Shown here piece by piece: positions 4,706 to 38,000 of a stretch of DNA of 38,000 nt. Numbering within the stretch: the first letter of the stretch is position 1; the number at the start of each line of letters is the position of its first letter. The translations under genes and the position numbers were made by a program. The notes below the pieces were generated by a model. It was not told the DNA's origin. It searched no databases and worked only from the letters and a program-made list of their open reading frames with translations. Source of the stretch: a virus; IMG/VR virus record IMGVR_UViG_3300045988_173701, positions 1 through 38,000 of that record, one strand, 5' to 3'.

Positions 4706-5863
4706 CTAGCTACTCGTGACATTTTCGGTCTCATCTCGGTCACAATAAAACGCCTTATCAAGTATAGCCTTGAAATGCTTGACCTTTGGTTTTGTGTAAT
4801 AGGCATAGGTTGTAGATATATTTGAGTGTCCCAATAGCTTTGCAGCAGTTTCAATAGGAACTCCCAAATCTTCAAGCATGGTGCTATAGCTCGCTCTTAG
4901 GTTCTTCCATGGTATATATACGAATGGATGGTTGGTAAACCATCGTTTGTAGGCAGTTGCCGCCCTGTCGGGGTTTATTGGAGCGCCAAAGCCATCATCA
5001 AGCATCCAAATATCGTTTTCTCTTTCAGCTTCATCTAGGATGCTTTTAAGGCGTTTAGCGTAAGGATCTACCAAAACTGCGATTCGTTTGCTTTCGGGTG
5101 TTTTAGTATCGGGTGATTCTGCGCATTCGTCCGATATCACTAATTCTTTATTTATATATTGCACGGTTCTTCTGATCTTTAACGTTGCATATCCTTCAAA
5201 GAATTCGATATCTTCTCTTTTTAATCCAAATGCTTCTTCTCTTCTAAGACCACCAAACGCTGAAACAATAAAACCAGCGAGCCAATATTCATCTGTCATT
5301 TCTTCTAATAATTCATCTAATGTTTCCTTGTCGTATATTTCGCTATTCATGCGCCGTGAGGTGTTTTTGTTTGGCAGTTTATAACGGCGTGCCATCACAT
5401 TGCGATGTATGTATTCGCCATCTTCTGCGTAGTTAAACATCGCTCTCATCGTTTTTAATAAGCTTTTAGCGGATCCATAGGTAAGTTCTTCAAGATAGCT
5501 TTTAACCTCGGCTACTTGGATATTTTCCATTTCTTTTTTGCCGAATTGGGGACTGATGTGGCATCTATATACGCTTTCATAGCCTCTTACGGTTGCAGGT
5601 GCCTGATTCTTTTTTATATAGGGGTAGTAATAGCGGATCCAAAACTGATCAACGCTTATATTTCGTTTAATTTGATCTGACGGAGCGTTCAGAATCCTTA
5701 ATTCTGCAAGCCTTAGTTCAGCATCTTTTTTTGTGCCATGTATGGTTTCAGATGCTTGACGGCGCTTGCCCGTAATTGGATCGTCGGAGAGGGGATACCT
5801 AATGCGGTATACACCGTTTTTTGTTTTAGATATGGTTCCCCATGTTCGAGTTCTTTTAGCCAT
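4706..5863 (-). CDS. int: Phage integrase (tyrosine recombinase)
   Basis: 385 aa. C-terminal LLGHSNISTTYAYY motif. Adjacent to the tRNA-derived att core. Confidence 0.9.
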   Translation of the reverse strand: MAKRTRTWGTISKTKNGVYRIRYPLSDDPITGKRRQASETIHGTKKDAELRLAELRILNAPSDQIKRNISVDQFWIRYYYPYIKKNQAPATVRGYESVYRCHISPQFGKKEMENIQVAEVKSYLEELTYGSAKSLLKTMRAMFNYAEDGEYIHRNVMARRYKLPNKNTSRRMNSEIYDKETLDELLEEMTDEYWLAGFIVSAFGGLRREEAFGLKREDIEFFEGYATLKIRRTVQYINKELVISDECAESPDTKTPESKRIAVLVDPYAKRLKSILDEAERENDIWMLDDGFGAPINPDRAATAYKRWFTNHPFVYIPWKNLRASYSTMLEDLGVPIETAAKLLGHSNISTTYAYYTKPKVKHFKAILDKAFYCDRDETENVTSS

Positions 5864-5910: not shown

Positions 5911-5952
5911 CTCGCTTCTCGGTCGCCAAACTTCGAGCGAGGTTCTTTTTTA
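5911..5952 (+). repeat. 42-bp direct repeat, copy 1 (hairpin plus T-run; overlaps the Abi_2 stop codon)
   Basis: CTCGCTTCTCGGTCGCCAAACTTCGAGCGAGGTTCTTTTTTA, identical to 7211-7252. Confidence 0.9.
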
Positions 5953-7074
5953 ATTGCTTATATTCGTTTTTCTTCCTCTACTATCAACTGCGGTTATACT
6001 AGTGTGCTTTATACCCAGTTTCTTAATTAGGTAATTTCTTAATCTGCCATTATGCACGACTCGATGTACTTTTATTCCTAGTACCGATTCTTGCAATAGC
6101 AAATCACTCCAATTAGGAGGTATATTTGCAATATTTAAAATGTCTGAAAATTCGCTTAATAGGTTAGTTGCGTCTCGCAACAACAGCGCACCATAAGACA
6201 AGCTGGTATCTTCCGCAAAAAGCCTATTGGTATTCAGTAGCTTCAGTAAGACGAGGATGATATAAAAAGGATTTCCGTTATCTCCTTCAGCTCCATGTAT
6301 TCTTTTTGGACGAGAAACGAGCTTTTTTCCGCAAATTTGCCCAAAGTGCGCACATGTATTTCTAATACCAGAAATAGATCTTGCCCAGCTTGTAAGTTCT
6401 TCTTGGGTAACTCCAAATGATTCAGCTACACCGTTTCTGACAGATTTGCTTCTTGTGTTGCTGTATAACATCGAAAGCGTTCCAAAAGACATAAGCTCTA
6501 CGGCTAACCAGGTCGGAGCGTCTCCGTATTTTTCGTAAGCTTCAATAACGTTAATGTTTCTATTTTTTATTTGGCGCTTGAATTCTCTTTGATAAGTTTG
6601 CAGGAAATTTTTGAAAAAGTCCTTTTTCTTAAAGTTTTTAGGATCTCTATGGGCGAAAGCTCCTCGTTGCATTGACAGGCGATATGAGTATTGGGCGCGG
6701 AACTGCAATTCGAATAATCCGATATATTCCATAAACAAGGCTTGCAGTTTGCGATCAAATAGGATAATTCGATGCAATGTTTTCATGGATGCACCTGACA
6801 TCATCTTTCCGTTTTCGTCTGAGAAAAGCCGAAAGTATCCACTTGCATGTTGATAGCTTATTCTGTTTAGTATGTATTCTGCCTGATCAGTAGATCCATC
6901 TATAAATCCTCTTTTTACTGCATGCTCTCTCAATTCGCTTAATTTGAGAGGTGAAGGTGGATCTGATAGGGGAGTGAATTCTGTCGTAAAATGAACGACC
7001 GAAGGATTTACGCCAACGTTTCCGCGACTACCTTCGGTTCTGTCAGCGCTAATTGTATCACAGTCGTTATACAT
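5950..7074 (-). CDS. Abortive-infection protein, Abi_2 (AbiD/AbiF-like) family
   Basis: 374 aa. ISYQHASGYFRLF and LFDRKLQALFMEYIGLFELQFRAQYSY match my memory of the Abi_2 YYRL/FDRKLR pattern. Confidence 0.65.
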   Translation of the reverse strand: MYNDCDTISADRTEGSRGNVGVNPSVVHFTTEFTPLSDPPSPLKLSELREHAVKRGFIDGSTDQAEYILNRISYQHASGYFRLFSDENGKMMSGASMKTLHRIILFDRKLQALFMEYIGLFELQFRAQYSYRLSMQRGAFAHRDPKNFKKKDFFKNFLQTYQREFKRQIKNRNINVIEAYEKYGDAPTWLAVELMSFGTLSMLYSNTRSKSVRNGVAESFGVTQEELTSWARSISGIRNTCAHFGQICGKKLVSRPKRIHGAEGDNGNPFYIILVLLKLLNTNRLFAEDTSLSYGALLLRDATNLLSEFSDILNIANIPPNWSDLLLQESVLGIKVHRVVHNGRLRNYLIKKLGIKHTSITAVDSRGRKTNISN

Positions 7075-7210
7075 TTTTTCTCCTAAAATCAGAAAGCCAC
7101 TAGCCGTAAACGACTAGCGACCTTCCTTTGTCAAAGGCTCTCGTAGATCACCAATGACTGATTCACTGTCGTTTAGTTTATATTTCACAATGAAATATTT
7201 CAATAATTCA

Positions 7211-7252
7211 CTCGCTTCTCGGTCGCCAAACTTCGAGCGAGGTTCTTTTTTA
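7211..7252 (+). repeat. 42-bp direct repeat, copy 2 (overlaps the GHKL gene stop codon)
   Basis: Identical to 5911-5952. Confidence 0.9.
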
Positions 7253-8545
7253 TTGACCAATATTAAAATGTCTTTTTAGTGCTTCATTAATCATCATTTC
7301 ATTTATCGGCGATACGTTTGTTATTGAAAAATAGGTCATGTATTTTACGAAACCGACTTCCTCTATCATTTTCCCTAACAGTTCGTCTGCATAAGAAGAA
7401 GTAACTATACTTGTGCTGTCGAAGTCGATTAGAATCTTTTTACCGCTCTGTTCGAATGCGTTTCTTATTACATTTCTTAGCCTGTTGGCAGCATATCTCG
7501 TTCCTGTCCCCTGAGATTCCTTTGCTATTTCGAACACAAGCGTATTTTCATTTAGTTCGTGGTCCTCTTCCCATAAGTCAGTTGGAATATATCCAAATAA
7601 AGCGTTTTCTACATTTATTTCTTTATCGACGGTGATTCTAAAATCAATAGTTGTTCCTCCGCTGATAGATGTTGCGATCTTTGAAATGACGGGTTCTGAA
7701 GATTCATTATCTTTAATATGGTCGAAAGTAACCCTTGTTTTGCCTGTAGAGATTTCCAATAATCCACAATTGTCTTTAATTAGCTGAGATAACATCCAAA
7801 GACCTCTGCCTGCTCCATTCCCAGAGGTAATATTTCTGGAAATTGCAAGTTGGATAGCTTCATCTTCATTTGCTGGAGAATATTTAGATCCTTCAAATGA
7901 TTTTAGGATTCCTTGGCCATTATCGTGAATAGTAAAAGCAACTGTTCTATTGTCTTGGTGGTATTGAGCCATTACGTATCCTACTGCATTTTCTACAGGC
8001 TCATTTGATGGTAGGGAATGGTTGATGACGTTATCCATTACTTCATTTAAGCAAAGCTCAATGCTAGGTAAAACACCTTTTACCAGCTTTGCATGCGTTC
8101 TTAAAGAATGAACTATTCCGCTTACAATTTTATCAATATCTTTCGAGGTGAATTTCCATACCCTGTCTAGGAATTCGCTTCTATAGATGTCTTCATTTCG
8201 GTATTCCTTTGGAGATATAAATGATGTATGTCCTAAATATGATCCTGCGAGATTCTGTGTCTTTAGAAAGACGCATCCTTTTTCTTTTGTGTAATAATCT
8301 AAGAGTGCGGAAACTGGTACACACATACTTGGATATGCTGAATCTGATTTTCCAATATTGCGAATCTTGAATATTTTTATACCGAGTTTAAGATTAGATT
8401 CTACGACTCTGGAAACGTGGTTAACCGATCCACGTTTTGCTATGTTGAGAGATATTATTTTATATCGGCTTGATTTGTCGTTTTCCGTCATAGTGTTCTT
8501 TTCTCTTGACTTGAAATAAAATCCTGTTATTATTCGTTGTGTCAC
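7250..8545 (-). CDS. GHKL-family ATPase (HATPase_c-like) with a possible STAS-like C-terminal region
   Basis: 431 aa. N-box LNEVMDNVINHS, G1 box HDNGQGI, G2 box SGNGAGRGLWM. Alternative start at Met-18 (8494). Confidence 0.6.
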   Translation of the reverse strand: MTQRIITGFYFKSREKNTMTENDKSSRYKIISLNIAKRGSVNHVSRVVESNLKLGIKIFKIRNIGKSDSAYPSMCVPVSALLDYYTKEKGCVFLKTQNLAGSYLGHTSFISPKEYRNEDIYRSEFLDRVWKFTSKDIDKIVSGIVHSLRTHAKLVKGVLPSIELCLNEVMDNVINHSLPSNEPVENAVGYVMAQYHQDNRTVAFTIHDNGQGILKSFEGSKYSPANEDEAIQLAISRNITSGNGAGRGLWMLSQLIKDNCGLLEISTGKTRVTFDHIKDNESSEPVISKIATSISGGTTIDFRITVDKEINVENALFGYIPTDLWEEDHELNENTLVFEIAKESQGTGTRYAANRLRNVIRNAFEQSGKKILIDFDSTSIVTSSYADELLGKMIEEVGFVKYMTYFSITNVSPINEMMINEALKRHFNIGQ

Positions 8546-12905: not shown

Positions 12906-13226
12906 ATGTCTATATGTCCATCGTGCGGCGGGTATTTGCCGCGAAACAGTGAAAGGTCAATTTGTCGCGAGTGCCACCTGAAGCGCGAGATTGAGTCGTT
13001 GCGTTGGGAAGTGGGAGAGCTTTATCGAATTCTTCCGATGCATATTCGTGCGAAATTGCGCAGCCAAGAGCAGGTTTATGTTCGTCAGGCCAATGTTAGC
13101 GTTTCTGGAAGATCCACCTCAAAAAGATTAAAGCGCTTATACCTTGAGCGTGATGCCCTTAAAAAGCAGGTTAGATCGTATCGTAAAGCTGCGATCGAGT
13201 GCGGTGTGCTTCGGAGTGGTAAGTAA
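12906..13226 (+). CDS. Zinc-finger protein (CxxC ... CxxC) in the integrase-2 cassette
   Basis: CPSCGG ... CRECH. Stop overlaps the integrase start (TAATG). Confidence 0.45.
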   Translation: MSICPSCGGYLPRNSERSICRECHLKREIESLRWEVGELYRILPMHIRAKLRSQEQVYVRQANVSVSGRSTSKRLKRLYLERDALKKQVRSYRKAAIECGVLRSGK

Positions 13227-14404
13227 TGGCATCGTCTCGTTTTAACTCAAATACGGGCATGATCGAGGTACGTGCTTATGCTGGCAAGGATCCGATTACG
13301 GGTAAGGTGCGGAATTTATTTCGCTCGCTTCCTGGAGACTCGGAGCCTGAAGCGGTAATAGGTGTTTGTGCAGAGTTACAAGAACAAGCAGATGCACTAA
13401 AGGGTCGATCTATTCCTTTTACTGTTAAGAGCGCAATTGAGTACTACTTTGATTGCATAGCGTCAGACCATTCAGCTACCACTATGGATGCGTATAGGTC
13501 AAATGCGCGTTGCTATGTGTATCCCTTTATTGGTGATAGGAGATTAGACGATCTTCAACCCTTTGAAATTACAAGGCTTTATCAGAGGCTCATTGATAAG
13601 GGCGGCAAGGATGAAAACCCTGTATCAAATTCTACGGTTGCCAAGTTGCATGCTTGGTTAAAACCCGCTTTTGATTATTTGGTTGGTTTAGGTATTGCAG
13701 GTTCTAATCCGTTTTCTTATGTAAAACGACCACGCGAAAACCAGGAAGAAGCGTTTGCGTTAAGCGAGATCGATCTAGCGGTTTTAATGGATTATCTCTA
13801 CGAAGCATCGAATCTTGATTCTGATGAATTCGACATGCTAAACGTTGCTTTGTTGTTGTGTTTGAATACAGGCATTAGACGTGGTGAGCTTGCAGGTTTT
13901 AGGGTGGGCGATTACAAGTCGCGCACTTCATCTATTTCGGTTAAGTCGAACTTGGTGCAAACCACAAAAGGATTAGTGCGCAAAGTTCCCAAGTCTAAGC
14001 ACTCAAGGCGCAATATATCGCTTCCTATTGATGTCTGTAATGTTCTTGATGGATATCTTTTCTGGCAGCGCGAAATGCTCGATGTTCACGGAATTCGCCA
14101 ACGTAGCGATACTCCTCTTTTTTGCGACAAGGAAGGCGCACCTATTCATCCTCGTATGTTTGCAAAGCATTTGCGCTACCTGGTAGGCAAATTAAAGCTG
14201 GATAGATCAATCCACTTGCATACCTTGCGTCACACCCATGCTACAGCGCTTTTAGATTTAGGTGTGAATATAAAAACTATTTCGGAGCGTTTGGGCCATT
14301 CAGATGTCGGGGTTACCTTGCGAATTTATTCCCATGTGTTGCCAGGTCGCGATGAGCAGGCAGCTAATACGTTTTCCAAAGCGGTGATGCGCCGTGACGT
14401 ATAA
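13226..14404 (+). CDS. Second phage-type integrase (tyrosine recombinase)
   Basis: 392 aa. C-terminal HTLRHTHATALLDLG ... RLGHSDVGVTLRIYSH. Confidence 0.85.
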   Translation: MASSRFNSNTGMIEVRAYAGKDPITGKVRNLFRSLPGDSEPEAVIGVCAELQEQADALKGRSIPFTVKSAIEYYFDCIASDHSATTMDAYRSNARCYVYPFIGDRRLDDLQPFEITRLYQRLIDKGGKDENPVSNSTVAKLHAWLKPAFDYLVGLGIAGSNPFSYVKRPRENQEEAFALSEIDLAVLMDYLYEASNLDSDEFDMLNVALLLCLNTGIRRGELAGFRVGDYKSRTSSISVKSNLVQTTKGLVRKVPKSKHSRRNISLPIDVCNVLDGYLFWQREMLDVHGIRQRSDTPLFCDKEGAPIHPRMFAKHLRYLVGKLKLDRSIHLHTLRHTHATALLDLGVNIKTISERLGHSDVGVTLRIYSHVLPGRDEQAANTFSKAVMRRDV

Positions 14405-15373: not shown

Positions 15374-16049
15374 TGCTTTGCCTGAATCGGAAAAGCAAAA
15401 AATACGTGAAAACGATGCGATAAATCGAGCTAAAAGAGAGCGTGCAGCGATGCAAAATATTCGCGAAAAAACGATTAAAAATCGCATCAAATATAGCGGT
15501 ATTCCTGAAGAATATAAGTCCGCAAAACTTGAGTATTGCGCATTGTCTATCCAGCAATATTTCGCAGCACTTGAAGTAGATGTGCGCGAGGATTTGGTGT
15601 TGCGCGGCGATGCTGGTACAGGCAAGACTTACGCAGCGTGTGCGGTAGGTATGGAATACATTAAAGGTCATACCGTGCGCTTTGTTACCATGCCTTATTT
15701 TTTGCGTGCAGTGAATGGTACTTGGATAAGCCGTGCCGAAACACCTCAGGAAGCGTTCGACCGCTATGCTGGCGCTGATTTGCTTATCTTGGATGACCTA
15801 GGTAAAGAGGTACCAAAAGAAACCTCGATTGCCTATATTTGGGAGCTTATTGACGTACGTAAGTCAAACGGTAGACCAACCATCATTACCACAAATTACG
15901 ATAGCGATAAGCTATACGATAGGCTTTCACAGGGCGGAAACAACAATGATGTGGTAGCGATTATCGACCGTATTGCACAATCTAATGTTGTTGTTATTGG
16001 TGGCCCGTCGCGGCGCGAGGTTTGCACCACGGTAGGAGGTGCAGCTTAG
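15339..16049 (+). CDS. DnaC/IstB-like AAA+ helicase loader
   Basis: Walker A GDAGTGKTY, Walker B LLILDDLG. Confidence 0.75.
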   Translation: MIDQRELLADFNALPESEKQKIRENDAINRAKRERAAMQNIREKTIKNRIKYSGIPEEYKSAKLEYCALSIQQYFAALEVDVREDLVLRGDAGTGKTYAACAVGMEYIKGHTVRFVTMPYFLRAVNGTWISRAETPQEAFDRYAGADLLILDDLGKEVPKETSIAYIWELIDVRKSNGRPTIITTNYDSDKLYDRLSQGGNNNDVVAIIDRIAQSNVVVIGGPSRREVCTTVGGAA

Positions 16050-18531
16050 GATGCGCGATTACATGGAATTTATCGCCGATAAACGTACTCATGCACCTCA
16101 TTCTGGTTTCGATCCTGGCGATAGCGTAAGCGAGGTCTTGTTTCCTCATCAGCGCGATATTGTGCGATGGGCAGTGATTGGTGGTAGGCGCGCCATATTT
16201 GCTGCGTTTGGTTTGGGTAAATCTTTGATGCAGCTAGAAATCATGCGTCTTATAGGTGAACATGATGGAGGTAAGCAGCTTATAATTTGCCCGCTTGGAG
16301 TGCGTCAAGAATTCAAGCGCGATGCTGAGCTTTTAGGTTTGCACCCTGTTTTTGTTCGCCGAAACGATGAAGTAGATAGCGATGGCTTGTACCTTACCAA
16401 CTACGAGAGCGTGCGCGATGGTAGGTTAGATCCGTGCTTGTTTAATGCTGTGAGTTTAGATGAAGCGAGTGTTTTACGCTCGTTTGGCTCAAAGACCTAT
16501 CAAACGTTTCTAACGCTTTTCGACCAAGTTCCATATAGGTTTGTTGCTACGGCAACACCGTCTCCTAATCGCTATAAAGAGCTGATTCACTATGCTGGCT
16601 TTTTGGGGATTATGGATACAGGCCAGGCACTGACACGCTTTTTCCAGCGCGATTCCACCAAAGCAAATAACCTTACTATCTATCCTCATAAGGAGCGCGA
16701 GTTTTGGCTGTGGTTATCCTCGTGGGCGATATTTTTGCAGCGTCCAAGTGATTTAGGTTATTCGGATGAAGGATATGATCTGCCACCATTGGAAGTCGTT
16801 TGGCATGAGCTTCCCATACAAGATTCTGAGCCTGAAATTGACCGCGATGGACAATATAGGGCCTTCCATGATTCGACCATTTCGCTCTCCAATGCTGCAC
16901 GCGCTAAACGTCAAACCATGGTCGAGCGCATAGCGAGCGCCAAAGAAATAATTGATGCGTCACCTGAAGATCATTTTGTTTTATGGCATGACTTGGAAGA
17001 TGAGCGCCATGAAATCAAACGCCAGATCCCTGAAGCAGTTGAGGTATACGGTTCGCAAGATTTAGATGTACGTGAACGCCGTATTGTTGATTTTTCCGAC
17101 GGCAAACATCGGATCCTTGCAACTAAGCCTATTTTGTCTGGTTCGGGTTGTAACTTTCAGCGCCATTGTCATCGCGAGATCTTTGTCGGTGTTGGGTTTA
17201 AGTTCAATGATTTTATTCAATCAATCCATCGTGTATATCGCTTCTTGCAAAGCGAGCAGGTGCGTATTGACATCATTTATTCAGAGGCTGAGCGCGAGGT
17301 AGTTGAGCAGCTAAAAGCAAAGTGGTCGCGTTATGAGGAGTTAAATCAAAAGATGGAAGAGATTATTAAAGAATATGGTCTATCTGATGCATCAATCGCT
17401 GAAGCTATGAAGCGCTCTATTGGTGTTGATCGCATTGAAGCAAGTGGGCAAGGATGGCTTGTTGCTAACAACGATACGGTGTTAGAAGCTGATCTGTTGG
17501 CAGAAAATTCACTTGATTTGATTGTCACCTCGATTCCATTTAGTAACCACTACGAATATACGCCTAGCTATAACGATTTCGGGCATACCGATGACGATGA
17601 GCACTTTTTTGAACAGATGGATTATCTAACGCCTAAGTTGTTGCGTGCGTTGAAGCCTGGTCGCATTTATTGCTGCCATGTTAAAGATCGCATCAATTTC
17701 GGTAACGTAACAGGTGCGGGCATTCCTACGGTTCAGCCGTTTCATTCAGAAACCATCGCTCATTTTTTAAAACATGGGTTTGATTATATGGGCATGATTA
17801 CGGTTGTAACCGATGTTGTGCGCGAGAATAATCAGACTTATCGCCTTGGATGGACTGAACAGTGCAAAGATGGCACGAAAATGGGCGTAGGTTGCCCTGA
17901 GTACGTTTTGCTATTCCATAAGCCTCAATCCGACCGCTCGCGAGGGTATGCTGATGAACCTGTCACTAAGTCGAAAGATGAATATTCCCGTGCGCGTTGG
18001 CAGATAGATGCGCATGCGTTTTGGCGAAGCTCTGGTGAGGGGTCGTTAACGCCTGAAGATTTGGAATCGCTGCCAATGAACGATATCCAGTGCATATTCA
18101 AACAATACAGTTTGAATCATATCTATGACTACAAAAGCCATGTGAAGATTGGCGAAGTATTAGATGGGGAAGGTCATTTGCCCTCAACTTTTATGTCGTT
18201 AGCTCCTGGTAGCTGGGATATGAGCGTTTGGGATGATGTAAATCGAATGCTTACGCTTAACACTTCGCAGTCAAAAAAACGACAAGCAATGCATGTATGC
18301 CCGCTTCAGTTCGACATCGTAGATAGGCTTATTACTCGCTACTCAAATGAAGGTGAGCTTGTGTATGACCCATTTGGCGGTCTGTTCACGGTTCCTTTGC
18401 GAGCCATGATGCTTGGTCGGCGTGGTCGCGCGGTAGAGCTTAATACTCAGTATTTCTTAGACGGTGTTAAGTACTTAGAAGCTGAAGAGCGAAAGCAATC
18501 AATGCCATCTATTTTTGATTTAGGAGCTTAA
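16039..18531 (+). CDS. SNF2-like helicase N-terminal domain fused to an N6/N4 DNA methyltransferase (PF01555-like)
   Basis: FGLGKS and SLDEASVL (DEAx box) in the N-terminal half. DLIVTSIPF (motif IV) and YDPFGGLFT (motif I) in the C-terminal half. Confidence 0.7.
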   Translation: MQLRMRDYMEFIADKRTHAPHSGFDPGDSVSEVLFPHQRDIVRWAVIGGRRAIFAAFGLGKSLMQLEIMRLIGEHDGGKQLIICPLGVRQEFKRDAELLGLHPVFVRRNDEVDSDGLYLTNYESVRDGRLDPCLFNAVSLDEASVLRSFGSKTYQTFLTLFDQVPYRFVATATPSPNRYKELIHYAGFLGIMDTGQALTRFFQRDSTKANNLTIYPHKEREFWLWLSSWAIFLQRPSDLGYSDEGYDLPPLEVVWHELPIQDSEPEIDRDGQYRAFHDSTISLSNAARAKRQTMVERIASAKEIIDASPEDHFVLWHDLEDERHEIKRQIPEAVEVYGSQDLDVRERRIVDFSDGKHRILATKPILSGSGCNFQRHCHREIFVGVGFKFNDFIQSIHRVYRFLQSEQVRIDIIYSEAEREVVEQLKAKWSRYEELNQKMEEIIKEYGLSDASIAEAMKRSIGVDRIEASGQGWLVANNDTVLEADLLAENSLDLIVTSIPFSNHYEYTPSYNDFGHTDDDEHFFEQMDYLTPKLLRALKPGRIYCCHVKDRINFGNVTGAGIPTVQPFHSETIAHFLKHGFDYMGMITVVTDVVRENNQTYRLGWTEQCKDGTKMGVGCPEYVLLFHKPQSDRSRGYADEPVTKSKDEYSRARWQIDAHAFWRSSGEGSLTPEDLESLPMNDIQCIFKQYSLNHIYDYKSHVKIGEVLDGEGHLPSTFMSLAPGSWDMSVWDDVNRMLTLNTSQSKKRQAMHVCPLQFDIVDRLITRYSNEGELVYDPFGGLFTVPLRAMMLGRRGRAVELNTQYFLDGVKYLEAEERKQSMPSIFDLGA

Positions 18532-32991: not shown

Positions 32992-33863
32992 TGGGCTTAG
33001 GCTACGAGTTTACCTATACAAATTCCAAAGGAGTGTCCATCGAATTCGGTGGACACTCTCCTTTTTGGGTTGATGGAGATACCTTCCGCTCATATGAATA
33101 TTCGTACAACGAATCTAATGGAAAGATATCAAACTTTTACATGGGGTTGAAGACGTACGGTTTTGATGTATCTATTGAGTCTAATGGAGTATCTGAAGCC
33201 GTTGAGCTGACAGAACAGCTTAGAAAACTATCTAATTACGATATTAAAGCTGAAACTCCAGGAACTATAAAAATAGGAGAGTATCAGACTGAAGGCTACA
33301 TTATAGGCCTTGATTATTCTTCTGAAGGTGATGATGATTTCTATGGATTTGAGACTGGATTAAGCGTCCAGGTAGCAATCGAAAACCCTATTTGGTATAC
33401 AGAGGAGCTTGTTAGTTTTAAGCCTCAAGTTATTAGTCCTGATTCTTCAGAAGGTCTTAACTATCCTTTTAACTATCCGTATAACTACGGTGCTCGTCGC
33501 AACGTCTATCGTAGGTTTTATAACGATGAGGTATTAAGCTGTCCTTTTAGGATACTCATTTACGGTAGAGCAGTAGATCCTTATGTGCGAATTGGAGCAA
33601 ATCTATATCAAGTAAATGCCACTATTGCGCAAGGTGGTTATTTGGTAATTGATTCTCGTAAGAAAAAGATTTATGAAATTCAACGACTTGGAAATAGGGT
33701 AGAGCACATAAGAAACAGGCTTCGTGGAGCTAAGGGATCAGGTCAATACATATTCGAGGAAATACTTAGCGGATATAACGATGTTATGTGGGATAACACA
33801 TTCGGATTCGATTTATATCTTATTCACGAATCTCCTCTTCCTCCTTTCTTTAAGGATAAGTAA
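32982..33863 (+). CDS. Distal tail protein (Dit-like)
   Basis: 293 aa, directly after the tape measure. Confidence 0.55.
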   Translation: MVIMGLGYEFTYTNSKGVSIEFGGHSPFWVDGDTFRSYEYSYNESNGKISNFYMGLKTYGFDVSIESNGVSEAVELTEQLRKLSNYDIKAETPGTIKIGEYQTEGYIIGLDYSSEGDDDFYGFETGLSVQVAIENPIWYTEELVSFKPQVISPDSSEGLNYPFNYPYNYGARRNVYRRFYNDEVLSCPFRILIYGRAVDPYVRIGANLYQVNATIAQGGYLVIDSRKKKIYEIQRLGNRVEHIRNRLRGAKGSGQYIFEEILSGYNDVMWDNTFGFDLYLIHESPLPPFFKDK

Positions 33864-33866
33864 CTT

Positions 33867-35816
33867 ATGGTAAATGATATTTATTACGAAGCTCCTGATA
33901 GTCAAAATGACGAAATTATTACCAATGCTAATTTTGAGACTTCATTTGGTGAAGATGAAAACATTGTTACCTTAAAACGTTCCATCAGTGATCCAATTTT
34001 GCAAGGTGGTTTTATCTACTCTGAGACCGACGAAAACGGCGGCATTATCGACTCCATGGAAGAAGTTACCGGAGAAGATGGAGAAGTTACCTATAGCGGA
34101 AGAAGCTACACAGGTATTTTAGATAGTCATATTATAAGGCCTGAAATTGGAACACTTTCAGGAGATGCAAATGATGTTATTGCCAAGGTTATTGATCATC
34201 TAGATCTTGGTGATGTATTTAAAGCTTCTCCTGAAAAGAGCGGTATAGCTATTAGCTATGAGGTCGATGATTACCTAACTGGTTATAGCGGTTTGTGTGC
34301 CATACTGAAATCTTCTAATGCGAAACTAAGTATAAGTCATACAGAGAGTTTGGTTGAACTAAGTGCTTTGCCTGTTGCTTCTGCAGGAGGGGTTGAATTT
34401 GGTAGTGATAATTTTAAGTTAACTATCAAAAAGGTTTTTCGCACTACTAACCACATGATTTGTCTAGGACCAAGCGAGGTTATAGATTTATATGTTGACG
34501 AATCGGGCAATGTTTCCAAGACTCAACATTTCTTCGGTGTTGATCAAATAACATCAATCTTTGACCAGCGTGAAACTTCATCTGATGATTTAGAAGAGAA
34601 AGCGACTGAGGAGCTTTTAGGCTTACAGGATGCCGATTCTTGCGAAATAGACCTTTTAAGCGATGACGAATCACTCGATGTTGGCGATATCGTAAGTGGT
34701 GTCGATGACATTACAGGAATTGAAGTTGTTGCGGTTGTTAAGCAAAAGAGTTTCAGTATTTCTGAAAATGAGCAACACCATAGCTATGAAGCAGGAAATC
34801 CTTCAATGACGCAATCTAAGGGTGGATATTCTGGTAGTTCTAACAATAGTGACGGATCGGTTGCGCTTGGTTTTAAAGTTGGCGATACGTTGGTTCTTAT
34901 TGATGGTGTGCTTGATGCAAAGGTATCACCAGAGCAGCTTGAAAGCTTAAGCCAACTTGTTGCTACAGCAAGGCAAGAAGCGTCTAATGCTGAAGCTACA
35001 GCTAATCAGGTAGCGAATGATCTTGATACCAAGGCGGAATTTGAGCATTATCACGATGCGAGTGATATAACTACTGGAGTATTAGATCAGAGTCGCGGTG
35101 GCACTGGTTCTGGCAACACAAAAGGATCGCGATATAACCTCTTAGGCGATATTGGGAGCGAAACTTCAATTCCCGGAGATGAAAGCGCAGTTGTCTTTGC
35201 GTACAGCTCTCCTTCGATATCAAACGGGGCCATATTTAAGCGCTCGTTAAGTTCTGTTTGGGATTGGATCTATCAAAAGATAAAGAGTGTAGTAAAGCCT
35301 ACAGATATAGGTGCTGCTACGTCTGCTCATGTTCATGACGTGGCTACTGATTCATCAAATGGTTTTATGAGTGCCGATGACCGCGAAAAGCTTGATGGTA
35401 TTGCAGATGGTGCCAACAAGACGGTAGTGGATTCGTCGCTTAGCGATACGAGTGCAAATCCTGTACAAAACAAGGTTGTTAAGTCGGCTCTCGATGATAA
35501 AGCCGATTCTGATCACGAACATAACTATGCCGCGTCGCTTAGTCCCGGGGGATCGGCATCTAGTGCTGAAAAATTAAAAACTGCACGAACTATCACTTTT
35601 CAAGGAGCCGTTAGTGGCTCCTTTTCTTTTGATGGATCTGAAAACGTAACAGTAAACCTCGAAGGAGATAGTCAAGCTGCTGGTTTTCTCGCTGCTCATC
35701 CTATTGGAAGTATCTTTTTTACAACAAACTCAACCGATCCTGGTGACACATATGGTGGTGTTTGGAAGAAATTACCGAGCGACAACGGTGGTTATCTCTT
35801 TCTACGTGAAAGTTAG
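33867..35816 (+). CDS. Tail-associated or tail-fibre protein (Tal position) with C-terminal His-box fibre-repeat motifs
   Basis: 649 aa. SAHVHDVATD ... SDHEHNYAASL ... AEKLKTARTITFQGAVSGSFSFDGSENVTV. Confidence 0.6.
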   Translation: MVNDIYYEAPDSQNDEIITNANFETSFGEDENIVTLKRSISDPILQGGFIYSETDENGGIIDSMEEVTGEDGEVTYSGRSYTGILDSHIIRPEIGTLSGDANDVIAKVIDHLDLGDVFKASPEKSGIAISYEVDDYLTGYSGLCAILKSSNAKLSISHTESLVELSALPVASAGGVEFGSDNFKLTIKKVFRTTNHMICLGPSEVIDLYVDESGNVSKTQHFFGVDQITSIFDQRETSSDDLEEKATEELLGLQDADSCEIDLLSDDESLDVGDIVSGVDDITGIEVVAVVKQKSFSISENEQHHSYEAGNPSMTQSKGGYSGSSNNSDGSVALGFKVGDTLVLIDGVLDAKVSPEQLESLSQLVATARQEASNAEATANQVANDLDTKAEFEHYHDASDITTGVLDQSRGGTGSGNTKGSRYNLLGDIGSETSIPGDESAVVFAYSSPSISNGAIFKRSLSSVWDWIYQKIKSVVKPTDIGAATSAHVHDVATDSSNGFMSADDREKLDGIADGANKTVVDSSLSDTSANPVQNKVVKSALDDKADSDHEHNYAASLSPGGSASSAEKLKTARTITFQGAVSGSFSFDGSENVTVNLEGDSQAAGFLAAHPIGSIFFTTNSTDPGDTYGGVWKKLPSDNGGYLFLRES

Positions 35817-35825
35817 GGGGTAGGT

Positions 35826-36065
35826 ATGCCTATTACTGAAGGTTATTCACTATGCGAATGTGCAGGATGCGGAAAGTGTCAGTATTTAAAACCGACTGAT
35901 GATGAATATTCGAACTATGTAAACCGTGAGCGTATTACTGCAAACGGAAACTCGAGTAAAACTACTTTCTGCAAGGACTGTAACAACAAATATCAATCTT
36001 TTGTTAATCAACAAGATATCGATTTTCAGAACTTCTTAACTGGACTTAAAACTAAGGAGAAATAA
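35826..36065 (+). CDS. Small zinc-ribbon protein
   Basis: CECAGCGKC ... CKDCNNKY. Confidence 0.4.
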   Translation: MPITEGYSLCECAGCGKCQYLKPTDDEYSNYVNRERITANGNSSKTTFCKDCNNKYQSFVNQQDIDFQNFLTGLKTKEK

Positions 36066-36880
36066 TGGGAAACAGTGGAGCTTTTGAGCTTGTTACAGGA
36101 CATGGCGCTGAGCCTCATGTTGATGCCGACGATCATGCTTTGCTTTATGCGTCCTTTATAGGTTCAGGTGTATATCGTTTAACCGGGGTCAAGACAGCAG
36201 AAATCGAAGTTACCTCAGAAAATGAGGTAACTATAAGTCCTGGTATGTTTCTTATTCACGGTCGATTTGCACGTGTTAAAGATCCTATTTCGTTATCAAT
36301 TGAGACTGGCTCACAAGGACAAAACAGAAACGATCTTGTAGTTTGTGAATATTCTTATTCTGGAAATGAAACCGAAATCGACGATATGGAACTGGTAGTA
36401 GTTACGGGAACTCCTGCTAATCCTGGATCAGAAACAGATCCGTCAATTGAGGACGATTTAACCTTGTTCGATATTGAGTACGGCGGAAGTATTACCGATG
36501 AAACAATCATTCAAGTTCCACTTTGGAGGGTGCCAAAAGAAGGATTAACGACACAAGATCCAGTTGCATTATTTAAGGATTATGTTGATGCAACTACCGC
36601 CAGGGATTCTATATCCCATATTCAGGTACGCACCAGGAGAAACGTCAGCTTTAATGTAACCAGCACAGCATCGCAATCAGTCACTAGTATTAGTGGCTTT
36701 GAGGACATTGATCCTGATTCTATTGTTGCGTTTATTCCTACGCTTTCAGCCTGTTCCGTATCTTCCGTAAACGCTGCTGCTCTATGGAATACCGATAACG
36801 GACACAACGACTTGCAGCTTGTTACATCGCAAGCTCAGACCATTAAGGTTAATTTGACTGTGGTTTATACCATTGATTAA
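36065..36880 (+). CDS. Receptor-binding protein: 180-aa constant N-terminus (36065-36605) fused to variable cassette A (36606-36880)
   Basis: The ORF reads through site S1 (encoding DSISH) into segment 1. Its stop TAA lies in the extended flank of site S2. Start is coupled to the upstream stop (TAATG). Confidence 0.7.
   Translation: MGNSGAFELVTGHGAEPHVDADDHALLYASFIGSGVYRLTGVKTAEIEVTSENEVTISPGMFLIHGRFARVKDPISLSIETGSQGQNRNDLVVCEYSYSGNETEIDDMELVVVTGTPANPGSETDPSIEDDLTLFDIEYGGSITDETIIQVPLWRVPKEGLTTQDPVALFKDYVDATTARDSISHIQVRTRRNVSFNVTSTASQSVTSISGFEDIDPDSIVAFIPTLSACSVSSVNAAALWNTDNGHNDLQLVTSQAQTIKVNLTVVYTID
36606..36617 (-). repeat. Recombination site S1 (ATTCTATATCCC on the + strand) at the constant/variable junction
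   Basis: The terminal inverted identity starts here. The core is translated as S-I-S. Confidence 0.75.
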
Positions 36881-36886
36881 GTGAGA

Positions 36887-36900
36887 GCATTCTATATCCC
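36887..36900 (-). repeat. Recombination site S2 (GCATTCTATATCCC) with 23-nt extended flank at 36864-36886
   Basis: 36864-36900 is the reverse complement of 37964-38000. Confidence 0.75.
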
Positions 36901-37148
36901 ATCAAACATACGTTATCGATAAAACAATTATCGAGGCAAATGGCGCTTACAATCTAGCAAACAGAGAGTGGCCTGTTCCATTTGTAGATCTTTGGGGAGT
37001 TTGGGCACAAGTAACTAATGCGCGCGTTCAGGTCGAAATAAGAAACGTTACAAACACAGGGTTCGATGTAGGCATCAGAAATGTAACAAATGCTAATGCT
37101 TCTTTTGACAACGAAAAAATATCCATTCATGGATTGGGGCTTATCTAG
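36888..37148 (+). other. Silent cassette B (86 codons, no start codon) read in the site frame: HSISHQTYVIDKTIIEANGAYNLANREWPVPFVDLWGVWAQVTNARVQVEIRNVTNTGFDVGIRNVTNANASFDNEKISIHGLGLI
   Basis: Translated by hand from S2. Open until TAG at 37146-37148, immediately before S3. Not in the ORF track because it has no ATG, GTG or TTG start. Confidence 0.65.
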
Positions 37149-37409
37149 TTTTCTATATCCCATAAAATCGTAAACGTAAACGAAACAATTGCATCACATG
37201 GACAAGTGTTTGTTACTCTTGAAAACATCGAAGGATATACTTGCGTATCTTGCATGTTTGACGGCACGTCTACCGATAGTCTTGCTTTTAGTGTCAGTGC
37301 TCCAATGCACAGTCCTAATTCTGGATTAACATACACTCGAATAATTAATTTGATGAGTGGTCAAATCACCGTCGAAGGGACAATAACTGCTGTTTATATG
37401 CGAATTTAG
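37149..37409 (+). other. Silent cassette C, read through S3 as FSISHKIVNVNETIASHGQVF... and ending ...ITAVYMRI (covers ORF 37206-37409)
   Basis: Same relative frame to the site as cassettes A and B. Stop TAG at 37407-37409 lies in the S4 flank. Confidence 0.65.
37151..37161 (-). repeat. Recombination site S3 (degenerate: TTCTATATCCC preceded by TT rather than GCA)
   Basis: Core match at a cassette boundary. Confidence 0.5.
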
Positions 37410-37422
37410 CATTCTATATCCC
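37409..37422 (-). repeat. Recombination site S4 (GCATTCTATATCCC)
   Basis: Exact core. Confidence 0.75.
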
Positions 37423-37679
37423 AGTTTTATCAGACCGAAAAGCAAACGGTTTTGATGAATGGCACAAGCAATAATTTATTTACCTTTGATCTTGATATTC
37501 CGCCAGGATATACGGCATGCGCATTGCAGTATTTAAGCGTGGCAAGCGCAAATGCTGCATGCGTTATCAGCTCATACCGTTTAGCTGATAGCCAATTAAA
37601 AATTAACGTTAGAAACACAAGTGGCGCTCAAATAACCGCCGAAGTCGAAGCATCTATTTTATGCTTGAAGCTCAATTAA
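37410..37679 (+). other. Silent cassette D: HSISQFYQTEKQTVLMNGTSNNLF ... LCLKLN (covers ORF 37452-37679)
   Basis: In frame with the site. Lies tail-to-tail with cassette E with no site between them. Confidence 0.65.
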
Positions 37680-37976
37680 CTAGCTAAGCGGAATACGCAT
37701 GTTGCCGTTGTAGTGATATGTGCCGCTAGTGTTGTGCTTGCATACTACCTGACCACTATCGTTAACCCATAAAACACCTGTATGGTCTGCATCTGATGCA
37801 CAGAGAGACATACAGGCTTTATGTTGTGGAGGTTTATCGAGAGTGCCCAGTGTCCATGTATTTTCATTGCGCATGATCATGTCGTAAACGCTGATCTCGA
37901 CCGTATTATCGGGATAGTAGTAAAGCGTGCAGCCTTCTTCGATCTGTTCAGTTTTAATTGGTTGGGATATAGAATG
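37680..37976 (-). other. Silent cassette E on the minus strand, read from S5 as HSISQPIKTEQIEEGCTLYYYPDNTVEISVYDMIMRNENTW ... RIPLS (covers ORF 37680-37880)
   Basis: Translated by hand from the mirror copy (25-321). Same site frame. Confidence 0.65.
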
Positions 37977-37977
37977 C
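37964..37977 (+). repeat. Recombination site S5 (GGGATATAGAATGC), the only site in opposite orientation to S1-S4; extended flank runs to the window end
   Basis: Exact core, followed by TCTCACTTAATCAATGGTATAAA, which is the inverse of the S2 flank. Confidence 0.75.
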
Positions 37978-38000
37978 TCTCACTTAATCAATGGTATAAA

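Follow-up and report, generated by a model that had tools for sequence, protein, structure and literature searches.

A putative Rin-type shufflon on a distal tail protein of a temperate siphovirus

Introduction

The Rin shufflon was described in the prophages Bb423phi1, Bl157phi1 and Bl30698phi1 of Bifidobacterium breve and B. longum (Mavrich et al. 2018, PMC6109161). Its receptor-binding protein has a constant N-terminus of 168 amino acids (aa) and C-terminal cassettes of 95–100 aa; an 11-bp asymmetric site, rix (TTCCCTAACCC), lies ahead of each cassette, and an armless XerD-like tyrosine invertase is encoded on the far side (PMC6109161). HHpred linked the Rin target to the 1358 N-terminus and the TP901-1 head (PMC6109161), and Rin also occurs in clade 1 prophages of Eggerthella lenta (PMC8778435). 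A tail-fibre shufflon has further been described in BV01-like phages of Phocaeicola vulgatus, with all configurations present in reads (2026 preprint, PMC13596623). Here, we analyzed the virus record IMGVR_UViG_3300045988_173701 of IMG/VR, an entire JGI contig of 38,000 nucleotides (nt), hereafter the window, in which a 271-aa tail-module protein is followed by an array of short sites and alternative C-terminal heads, next to a gene for a 309-aa tyrosine recombinase. We put at roughly 85% the probability that this locus is a Rin-type shufflon on a distal tail protein of a temperate siphovirus. On sequence comparison, the array appears to be a diverged member of the Rin family, low in guanine–cytosine (GC) content and of a kind known since 2018. 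Tyrosine-invertase shufflons on phage receptor proteins are known from Bifidobacterium and Eggerthella prophages, and the window adds a gut lineage of 42% GC.

Five in-frame cassettes lie behind short asymmetric sites

Codon 180 of the 271-aa protein is followed by five copies of (A/T)TTCTATATCCC. When we searched the window for GGGATATAGAAT or its complement, copies were found in this region at 36606, 36889, 37150 (1 mismatch), 37411 and 37964. Allowing up to 2 mismatches gave 11 matches in the window against 3.5 expected, a count reached in 0 of 100 shuffles. All 10 copies with 0–1 mismatch lie within two copies of the array, one of which is an inverted duplicate described below, and the sole match elsewhere (23604) has 2 mismatches. 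The array is laid out as follows.

36065–36604, + strand: constant part (Rc-like, codons 1–180) of the open reading frame (ORF) 36065–36880, 271 aa
36606–36617, + strand: site S1 (ATTCTATATCCC), within the gene, reading D-S-I-S; fusion point, at which the inverted terminal repeat ends
36618–36880, + strand: cassette A, 91 codons counted from the site; the head now fused to the constant part
36889–36900, + strand: site S2, a match to the 12-mer
36901–37148, + strand: cassette B, silent, 86 codons
37150–37161, + strand: site S3 (TTTCTATATCCC), 11-bp core intact
37162–37409, + strand: cassette C, silent, 86 codons
37411–37422, + strand: site S4, a match to the 12-mer
37423–37679, + strand: cassette D, silent, 89 codons
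37680–37963, − strand: cassette E, silent, 98 codons, convergent with D
37964–37975, − strand: site S5, inverted relative to S1–S4
37976–38000, − strand: repeat of the end of cassette A, 25 nt, the reverse complement of 36864–36888, forming the junction of the A end with E

The frame reading xSIS(H/Q) at each site is open over the number of codons listed, compared with just 5–22 codons in the other two frames. The stops of cassettes A, B and C, at 36880, 37148 and 37409, fall 1–9 nt ahead of the next site. The stop of D ends at 37679 and that of E at 37680, so that the two stops abut and the cassettes converge; D and E form one invertible segment. No start codon occurs in the first 14 codons of any cassette, and B has none before codon 83. 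Unless joined to the 180 codons that precede S1, the cassettes would therefore be silent. Pairwise aa identity among the cassettes is 17–28%.

These features agree closely with a sequence-only reading of the same DNA, which had proposed five sites at these places, S1–S4 in one orientation and S5 in the other, asymmetric sites translated as a linker, and fixed-frame cassettes of about 85–100 codons (86–98 were found) stopping at the next site. Its description of S3 as degenerate did not hold. The variant base of S3 lies outside the 11-bp core TTCTATATCCC, and relatives have either A or T at this position.

The core of this site type, which we call class I, does not vary among 27 distinct sites from 5 loci, and the farther flanks are unrelated. 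Beyond the core, the cassette side retains one base, mostly A, and the other side shows a weak TAG(C/T)(A/T) motif only, which takes in the stop codon of the preceding cassette. The conserved stretch thus amounts to 11–12 bp plus one cassette-side base and is asymmetric.

Relatives differ by inversions and head exchanges at the sites

Near-identical relatives bear directly on whether such arrays rearrange. Between the metagenome contig L033 and the IMG/VR contig L034, a stretch of 3277 nt running to the recombinase-proximal site is 100.000% identical. Past that site, L033 continues for 769 nt with sequence that L034 has in reverse complement (99.87%) directly against its tail-gene site. Contigs L032 and L003 have constant parts that are 100% identical over 1274 nt, after which two cassettes have changed places and a stretch of 637 nt is inverted; all of these breakpoints fall at sites. 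Both pairs carry the class I site, as the window does. In a third pair, L007 and L011 (99.3–99.8% identical), a 602-bp inversion lies between sites and two whole cassettes, each with sites as its borders, differ; the whole-cassette differences suggest loss or gain over time. Together, these comparisons indicate that inversion occurs at these sites.

The protein products show a matching pattern. The tail protein had 42 relatives in a protein search. For about 35 of these, identity over residues 1–180 is 89–100%, and the C-terminus is wholly different after R180. The switch point is always AR followed by (D/S/T)S(I/M), that is, the codons of the site. More than 10 unrelated heads occur on constant parts that are 98–100% identical. 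This split between a conserved and a variable part supports the earlier proposal of a constant region of about 180 aa with a swappable C-terminus of about 90 aa.

Individual heads of the window recur in other combinations. The proteins P0003 and P0014 join the constant part to the D head (91% identical), and P0008 joins a constant part 100% identical to that of the window to the E head at 78% identity. In P0038–P0042, the constant part is about 32% identical, yet cassette A is present at 83–93% aa identity, joined at DSIS. At the nucleotide level, L002 (1374–1669) holds cassette A at 96.6% identity with similarity stopping at the sites, and identity to L003, L004 and L032 ends at 36617, the last base of S1. 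A copy of cassette B, 95.6% identical, lies in L001 in the opposite orientation and among different neighbours, and L027 carries the start of cassette C and the flank of its end, each at reverse-oriented sites. Thus, on these sequences, head cassettes appear to be shared between phage lineages.

Directly upstream of the shufflon gene, and overlapping its start, is a 79-aa Cys-rich protein (35826–36065, + strand; CxCxxCxxC ... CxxC, zinc-ribbon-like). A protein of about 78–80 aa holds the same position in Bifidobacterium phage PMBT6, in ctl617 and in all close relatives, and that of L007 is 96% identical. The 79-aa protein may act with the tail-tip protein as a partner or help to assemble it.

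Site classes track the clade of the adjacent recombinase

The enzyme gene and its nearest site are arranged as follows.

1384–1395, − strand: recombinase-proximal (sixth) site, 12 nt from the stop of the recombinase gene
1408–2337, − strand: Rin-like tyrosine recombinase, 309 aa, armless, transcribed towards the array

The 309-aa protein matches the Pfam Phage_integrase domain (E 1.2e-13) and SAM-like core-binding domains, which, with its distance of 12 nt from the array, bears out the earlier identification of a tyrosine recombinase beside the cassettes. It aligns with the recombinases of PMBT6, ctl617 and L007, and the Arg, Lys, Arg and His residues and the nucleophile Tyr269 are present; the protein ends 40 residues past Tyr269. 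The window encodes three tyrosine recombinases, and the N-terminal extension of about 70 aa found in the other two, both integrases, is absent from the 309-aa protein. In three relatives, the recombinase is called as two ORFs: L027 (8401–9351), L029 (8979–9882) and L008 (11773–12675) (Logan-assembled). Translated searches (tblastn) align across the split in all three, which reflects frameshifts, stop codons or assembly errors.

Each of three site variants has its own recombinase clade, with no exception in the 12 loci.

Class I, core TTCTATATCCC: the window, L001 and L027; recombinases of the latter two 92% and 90% identical in aa to that of the window
Class II, core TTCCATAG[ACG]CC: L007, L008, L011, L028 and L029; recombinases 30–34% identical to that of the window and 91–100% to one another
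Class III, core TTCCGTAACCC: PMBT6, ctl617 and B. thermacidophilum; recombinases 35–38% identical to that of the window

The pairing holds among close relatives. Class I and class II phages are 98–100% identical in the tail tube, 88–89% in the tape measure and 84% in the endolysin, and the tail proteins of class II phages are 79–100% identical to those of the window. In L028, the constant part is 100% identical to that of the window, but the sites and the recombinase are both of class II. Comparison of L007, L011, L028 and L029 with the window puts the module boundary about 10 nt upstream of the core. Such a switch of class between close relatives implies that array and recombinase move as one module and that the site follows the enzyme, which points to the adjacent 309-aa recombinase as the enzyme for these sites.

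Variable bases at the edge of the core help to localize the exchange. The base just 5′ of the class I core (A or T in relatives) moves with the upstream flank, and the variable ninth base of the class II core moves with the downstream flank. This linkage would place both strand exchanges within the first 8 bp of the core (TTCNATAN). The overlap region of tyrosine recombinases is typically 6–8 bp, which fits this placement, and we predict that the overlap lies inside TTCTATAT.

The three classes of site and recombinase may provide orthogonal invertases that act on small sites, which are wanted for DNA-shuffling tools (PMC11852207). Beyond the shufflon itself, the locus adds interest through these candidate orthogonal classes and through head cassettes that are common to different phages. 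A broader reading, which we hold to be possible but doubtful, is an integron-like pool of head cassettes moving between gut phages at rix-like sites, in which at least three mutually orthogonal site and recombinase pairs would be exchanged as modules among phages that are near-identical in other respects. It draws on cassette A occurring on constant parts of about 32% identity, on the similarity in L002 that ends at the sites, on the cassette differences between L007 and L011, and on the class II module of L028.

Comparison with described systems

Among 50,697 phage records, PMBT6 was the top match to both components, with 36% identity for the recombinase (E 9e-47) and 34% for the constant part (E 2e-18); its tblastn alignment covers 91% of the constant part. 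Siphoviridae sp. ctl617 came second for both, its constant part being 30% identical. In PMBT6, about 1 kb separates the two homologues, whose order and orientation are those of the window. In PMBT6 and ctl617, the order is tape measure (PMBT6) or tail proteins (ctl617), a protein of about 78 aa, a protein of about 265 aa, small ORFs and a reverse "integrase"; in ctl617, the lysis genes come next. A profile search returned 917 relatives, in which the next source-named matches after P0001–P0042, the group of the window itself, were Bifidobacterium proteins, with those of B. catenulatum, B. pseudocatenulatum and PMBT6 at about E 1e-70.

At the level of the site, the arrays of PMBT6, ctl617 and B. 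thermacidophilum carry TTCCGTAACCC at the same codon position. The copy within the gene reads GGGATTCCGTAACCC in the PMBT6 and ctl617 arrays as against GGGATTCTATATCCC in the window, and the window core matches both TTCCGTAACCC and rix at 8 of 11 bases. We compared the window with Rin by sequence through PMBT6 and with Bb423phi1 through its published description. The constant part is 168 aa in Rin and 180 aa in the window, and the cassettes are 95–100 and 86–98 aa, respectively. An asymmetric site within the gene, a site before each cassette, an armless invertase facing the array and a position between tail and lysis genes are common to both. The differences lie in the site sequence, in the recombinase clade (30–38% identity between clades) and in GC content (42% versus 60–62%). 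Furthermore, the published links to lactococcal receptor-binding proteins were not reproduced with hhalign.

The R64 (IncI) shufflon, with the recombinase Rci, the sfx sites and the PilV adhesin, resembles the window in its tyrosine recombinase, in multiple inversions, in swapping the C-terminus of an adhesin and in asymmetric sites of which the core and one side only are conserved. The sites differ in extent: sfx has a 7-bp core and a 12-bp arm, with a variable left arm, and about 12–13 bp only are conserved in the window. Rci also carries an extra C-terminal domain, thought to enforce inversion only (PMC11852207), that the window enzyme lacks. Moreover, the window has three tandem single-cassette segments, and thus four direct sites, and its target is a phage tail protein rather than a pilin. 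A tblastn search of 72,556 plasmids, R64 itself not among them, with the recombinase gave 386 weak integrase matches; the 30 matches listed were 22–33% identical, and Escherichia was not among the ten most frequent organisms. An NCBIfam scan of the recombinase returned only sub-threshold Xer and integron-integrase matches. The sequence-only reading had called the system mechanistically that of R64 Rci/sfx. The likeness in how it works stands, and membership of that family does not, given that no specific similarity to Rci was found and that the C-terminal domain is missing.

Gin of Mu, Cin of P1, Pin of e14 and Min of p15B likewise swap the C-terminus of a tail fibre by inversion for host range, and Min resembles the window further in being a multi-segment system. 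These enzymes are serine recombinases, whereas that of the window is a tyrosine recombinase. We rejected a serine-invertase system because the adjacent enzyme is a tyrosine recombinase, and no resolvase-type protein was found among the 20 larger ORFs screened. We likewise rejected a diversity-generating retroelement, since the heads are wholly different rather than point-mutated copies; no reverse transcriptase was found among the same 20 ORFs, the small ORFs not having all been scanned. The earlier exclusion of both kinds of system is thus upheld by the class of the enzyme and the nature of the heads. By description, the BV01-like shufflon shares a multi-cassette invertible array at the distal end of a tail-fibre gene and a flanking recombinase, and it differs in its unrelated motif TGGGAGAACT, its three cassettes and six variants, and its Bacteroidota host.

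Proposed mechanism and the role of the heads

We propose that the armless 309-aa recombinase would recombine the short asymmetric sites with core TTCTATATCCC. The site within the gene would supply codons 181–184 (DSIS), and each of the other sites would head a cassette that has neither start codon nor promoter. Inversion between the site in the gene and one in the opposite orientation would set a new cassette in frame behind the 180-aa constant part, giving five isoforms of 266–278 aa. Under an inversion-only model, with A, B and C as single segments and D/E as a double one, 48 arrangements would be available. Starting from const-A-B-C-D/E′, one inversion would bring in head E, and two each would bring in D, C or B.

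The gene position and the homology of the constant part to the Rc of the published system suggest that the tail-module protein is probably a distal tail, receptor-binding protein. We infer that it binds a host receptor and that the heads differ in specificity. The constant part itself matches phrog_13141 and phrog_9994, both of unknown function. When the five cassettes were scanned against Pfam and PHROG, as the sequence-only reading had suggested, no head or carbohydrate-binding family was matched above threshold. The sole sub-threshold match was that of cassette B to the H-type lectin family PF09458 (E 3.7e-4; 21 bits, below the cut-off of 24). H-type lectins also appear among the non-significant Foldseek matches of a model of the constant part with cassette A, and profile and sequence searches of the PDB came back empty. 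If the heads set receptor specificity, one phage genome would encode five host ranges, which bears on host-range engineering.

An inverted duplicate of the array at the contig ends

The array occurs twice in the contig.

1–1395, − strand: inverted array copy with sites at 26, 579, 840, 1101 and 1384, joined to the recombinase flank

Positions 1–1395 are the exact reverse complement of 36606–38000, a perfect inverted terminal repeat of 1395 nt, and the match runs no farther than the outermost base of the 12-mer. One copy of the array sits on the tail gene and the other on the recombinase flank, through the site at 1384–1395. The earlier reading had used positions 1–1400 for the mapping of reads only; they are actually an inverted duplicate of the array.

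Six types of junction are present in the contig: const–A, recombinase flank–A, A–B, B–C, C–D and A–E. The end of A is therefore joined both to B and to E. A genome with one copy of each cassette and five sites uses the start of A once and the end of A once, so that six junctions cannot fit. Two readings of the six junctions remain: at least two inversion isomers were co-assembled, or cassette A is duplicated in inverted orientation. The junctions const–A and recombinase flank–A are mutually exclusive, and both are present in the window; a duplicated cassette A would also explain this. On both readings, assembly of a region that is invertible or partly duplicated probably generated the long inverted terminal repeat.

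Relatives give these junctions a context. A single array lies between the tail gene and the recombinase in L027, L029, L034 and PMBT6. The junction of the A end with E is the native arrangement in L002, and the 24-nt flank with the recombinase-proximal site recurs in L033 and L034. The contigs of L001, L002, L003, L004, L009, L010 and L028 end in or beside the array. Such arrays thus break or distort assemblies, and a false inverted terminal repeat of 1.4 kb could pass for genome ends in virome catalogues.

Weighing the alternatives

Several observations weigh against an active shufflon of receptor-binding heads. Switching by this copy at the present time is a point that we infer. The four alternative fusions of the constant part with B, C, D or E had 0 exact matches in a collection of 15 billion proteins. 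The 1395-nt repeat and the six junctions also fit one fixed genome, const-A-B-C-D-E′-A′-recombinase. Four of the sites are direct repeats, which leaves the avoidance of deletion unexplained, and relatives do differ by whole cassettes. As for the heads, AlphaFold runs with 22 and 52 sequences gave pLDDT (model confidence) values of 54 and 57.5, so that the structure predictions called for by the sequence-only reading led to no fold assignment. Foldseek against the PDB gave a best E of 0.2, with no significant match, and hhalign against the receptor-binding proteins of the lactococcal phages 1358 (ORF20) and TP901-1 (BppL) gave a probability below 1%.

The strongest competitor, which we nonetheless consider unlikely, is that the array is fixed: its cassettes and sites would be relics or be swapped over evolution only, cassette A would be duplicated in inverted orientation (genome of about 36.86 kb), and a dumbbell-shaped assembly graph would have been walked from both sides. 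Such a genome yields all six junctions with no population heterogeneity, the contig passes through the sites unbroken, unlike many contigs of relatives, and none of the alternative fusions has been recorded for this exact phage. On the other hand, the recombinase is full length with its catalytic residues, the 11-bp core is identical at all sites, and all five cassettes are open and in frame. Relatives of the same site class, with recombinases from 80% (nt) to 92% (aa) identical, show inversions, and a genome with duplicated A would itself most simply come from recombination of two inversion isomers. We take the array to be real and probably active. The earlier proposal of a tyrosine recombinase that swaps a C-terminus of about 90 aa by multiple inversion finds support in the covariation of sites with recombinase clades, in head swaps at the site codons and in the inversions seen between relatives.

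Two further explanations concern parts of this picture. The presence of three tyrosine recombinases in the window allows that the 385-aa integrase, the 392-aa recombinase or a host invertase performs the inversion and that the 309-aa gene has a different job. We regard this as very improbable. The site changes with the clade of the adjacent recombinase at every locus compared, including phages 79–100% identical in tail proteins, the adjacent gene keeps its position and orientation through to the Bifidobacterium phages, and the 385-aa and 392-aa proteins carry the arm-type N-terminal extensions typical of integrases. Least credible of all is that the 1395-nt repeats are true ends of a linear genome with two real arrays, as a perfect repeat placed exactly at the contig ends might suggest. 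The large terminase, portal and protease are typical of terminase-packaged siphoviruses, a screen of the 20 larger ORFs showed no protein-primed polymerase, the edge of the repeat coincides with a recombination site, and in relatives as well as in PMBT6 a single array separates the tail gene from the recombinase.

Genome context and host

The contig represents a temperate siphovirus, the genome of which is about 36.6 kb long. Its genes run in the order large terminase, portal, protease, major capsid, tail tube, tape measure and a 293-aa protein, then a 649-aa minor tail protein (phrog_538), the 79-aa Cys-rich protein and the 271-aa shufflon protein; past the circular junction come the 309-aa recombinase, a holin, an amidase endolysin and the 385-aa integrase. 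This order makes the shufflon protein the last of the tail module.

Megablast of 33800–38000 against the 50,697 phage records gave no match, and no relative turned up when GTDB representative genomes were scanned with the constant part as a single protein. A profile scan of GTDB found only relatives of 30–36% identity, in Bifidobacterium, Atopobium/Lancefieldella, Lachnospiraceae, Oscillospiraceae and Clostridium sp. The GC content of the window is 42%, compared with 60–62% for the Bifidobacterium loci, which argues for a host other than Bifidobacterium. Close relatives carry an Amidase_2/SH3 endolysin and a Dp-1-type holin, and relatives of the terminase include that of a Clostridium scindens phage at 45% identity and those of human faecal contigs. 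The endolysin and holin of these close relatives and the relatives of the terminase point to a Gram-positive gut host. This 42% GC lineage of gut phages is common in public metagenomes, as judged from the 42 tail-protein relatives found in the first search, and a terminase cluster of 113 members takes in the terminase of this contig. Terminases of this cluster, defined at 90% identity, occur on contigs as long as 428 kb.

A transfer RNA scan of the window found none. The two larger tyrosine recombinases, of 385 aa (4706–5863, − strand) and 392 aa (13226–14404, + strand), both have arm-type N-terminal extensions; the former adjoins the lysis genes, as an ordinary phage integrase does, and the latter lies in the early region. 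Near the integrase are an Abi-like gene (5950–7074, − strand) that matches phrog_2158, abortive infection resistance protein, at E 8e-40, and a gene for a 431-aa protein of unknown function (7250–8545, − strand). The region 5950–8545 is probably a prophage-encoded defence or moron region. An 830-aa protein (16039–18531, + strand) matches the phage DNA helicase family phrog_16 over its full length, and its C-terminal part has weaker matches to DNA methyltransferase families.

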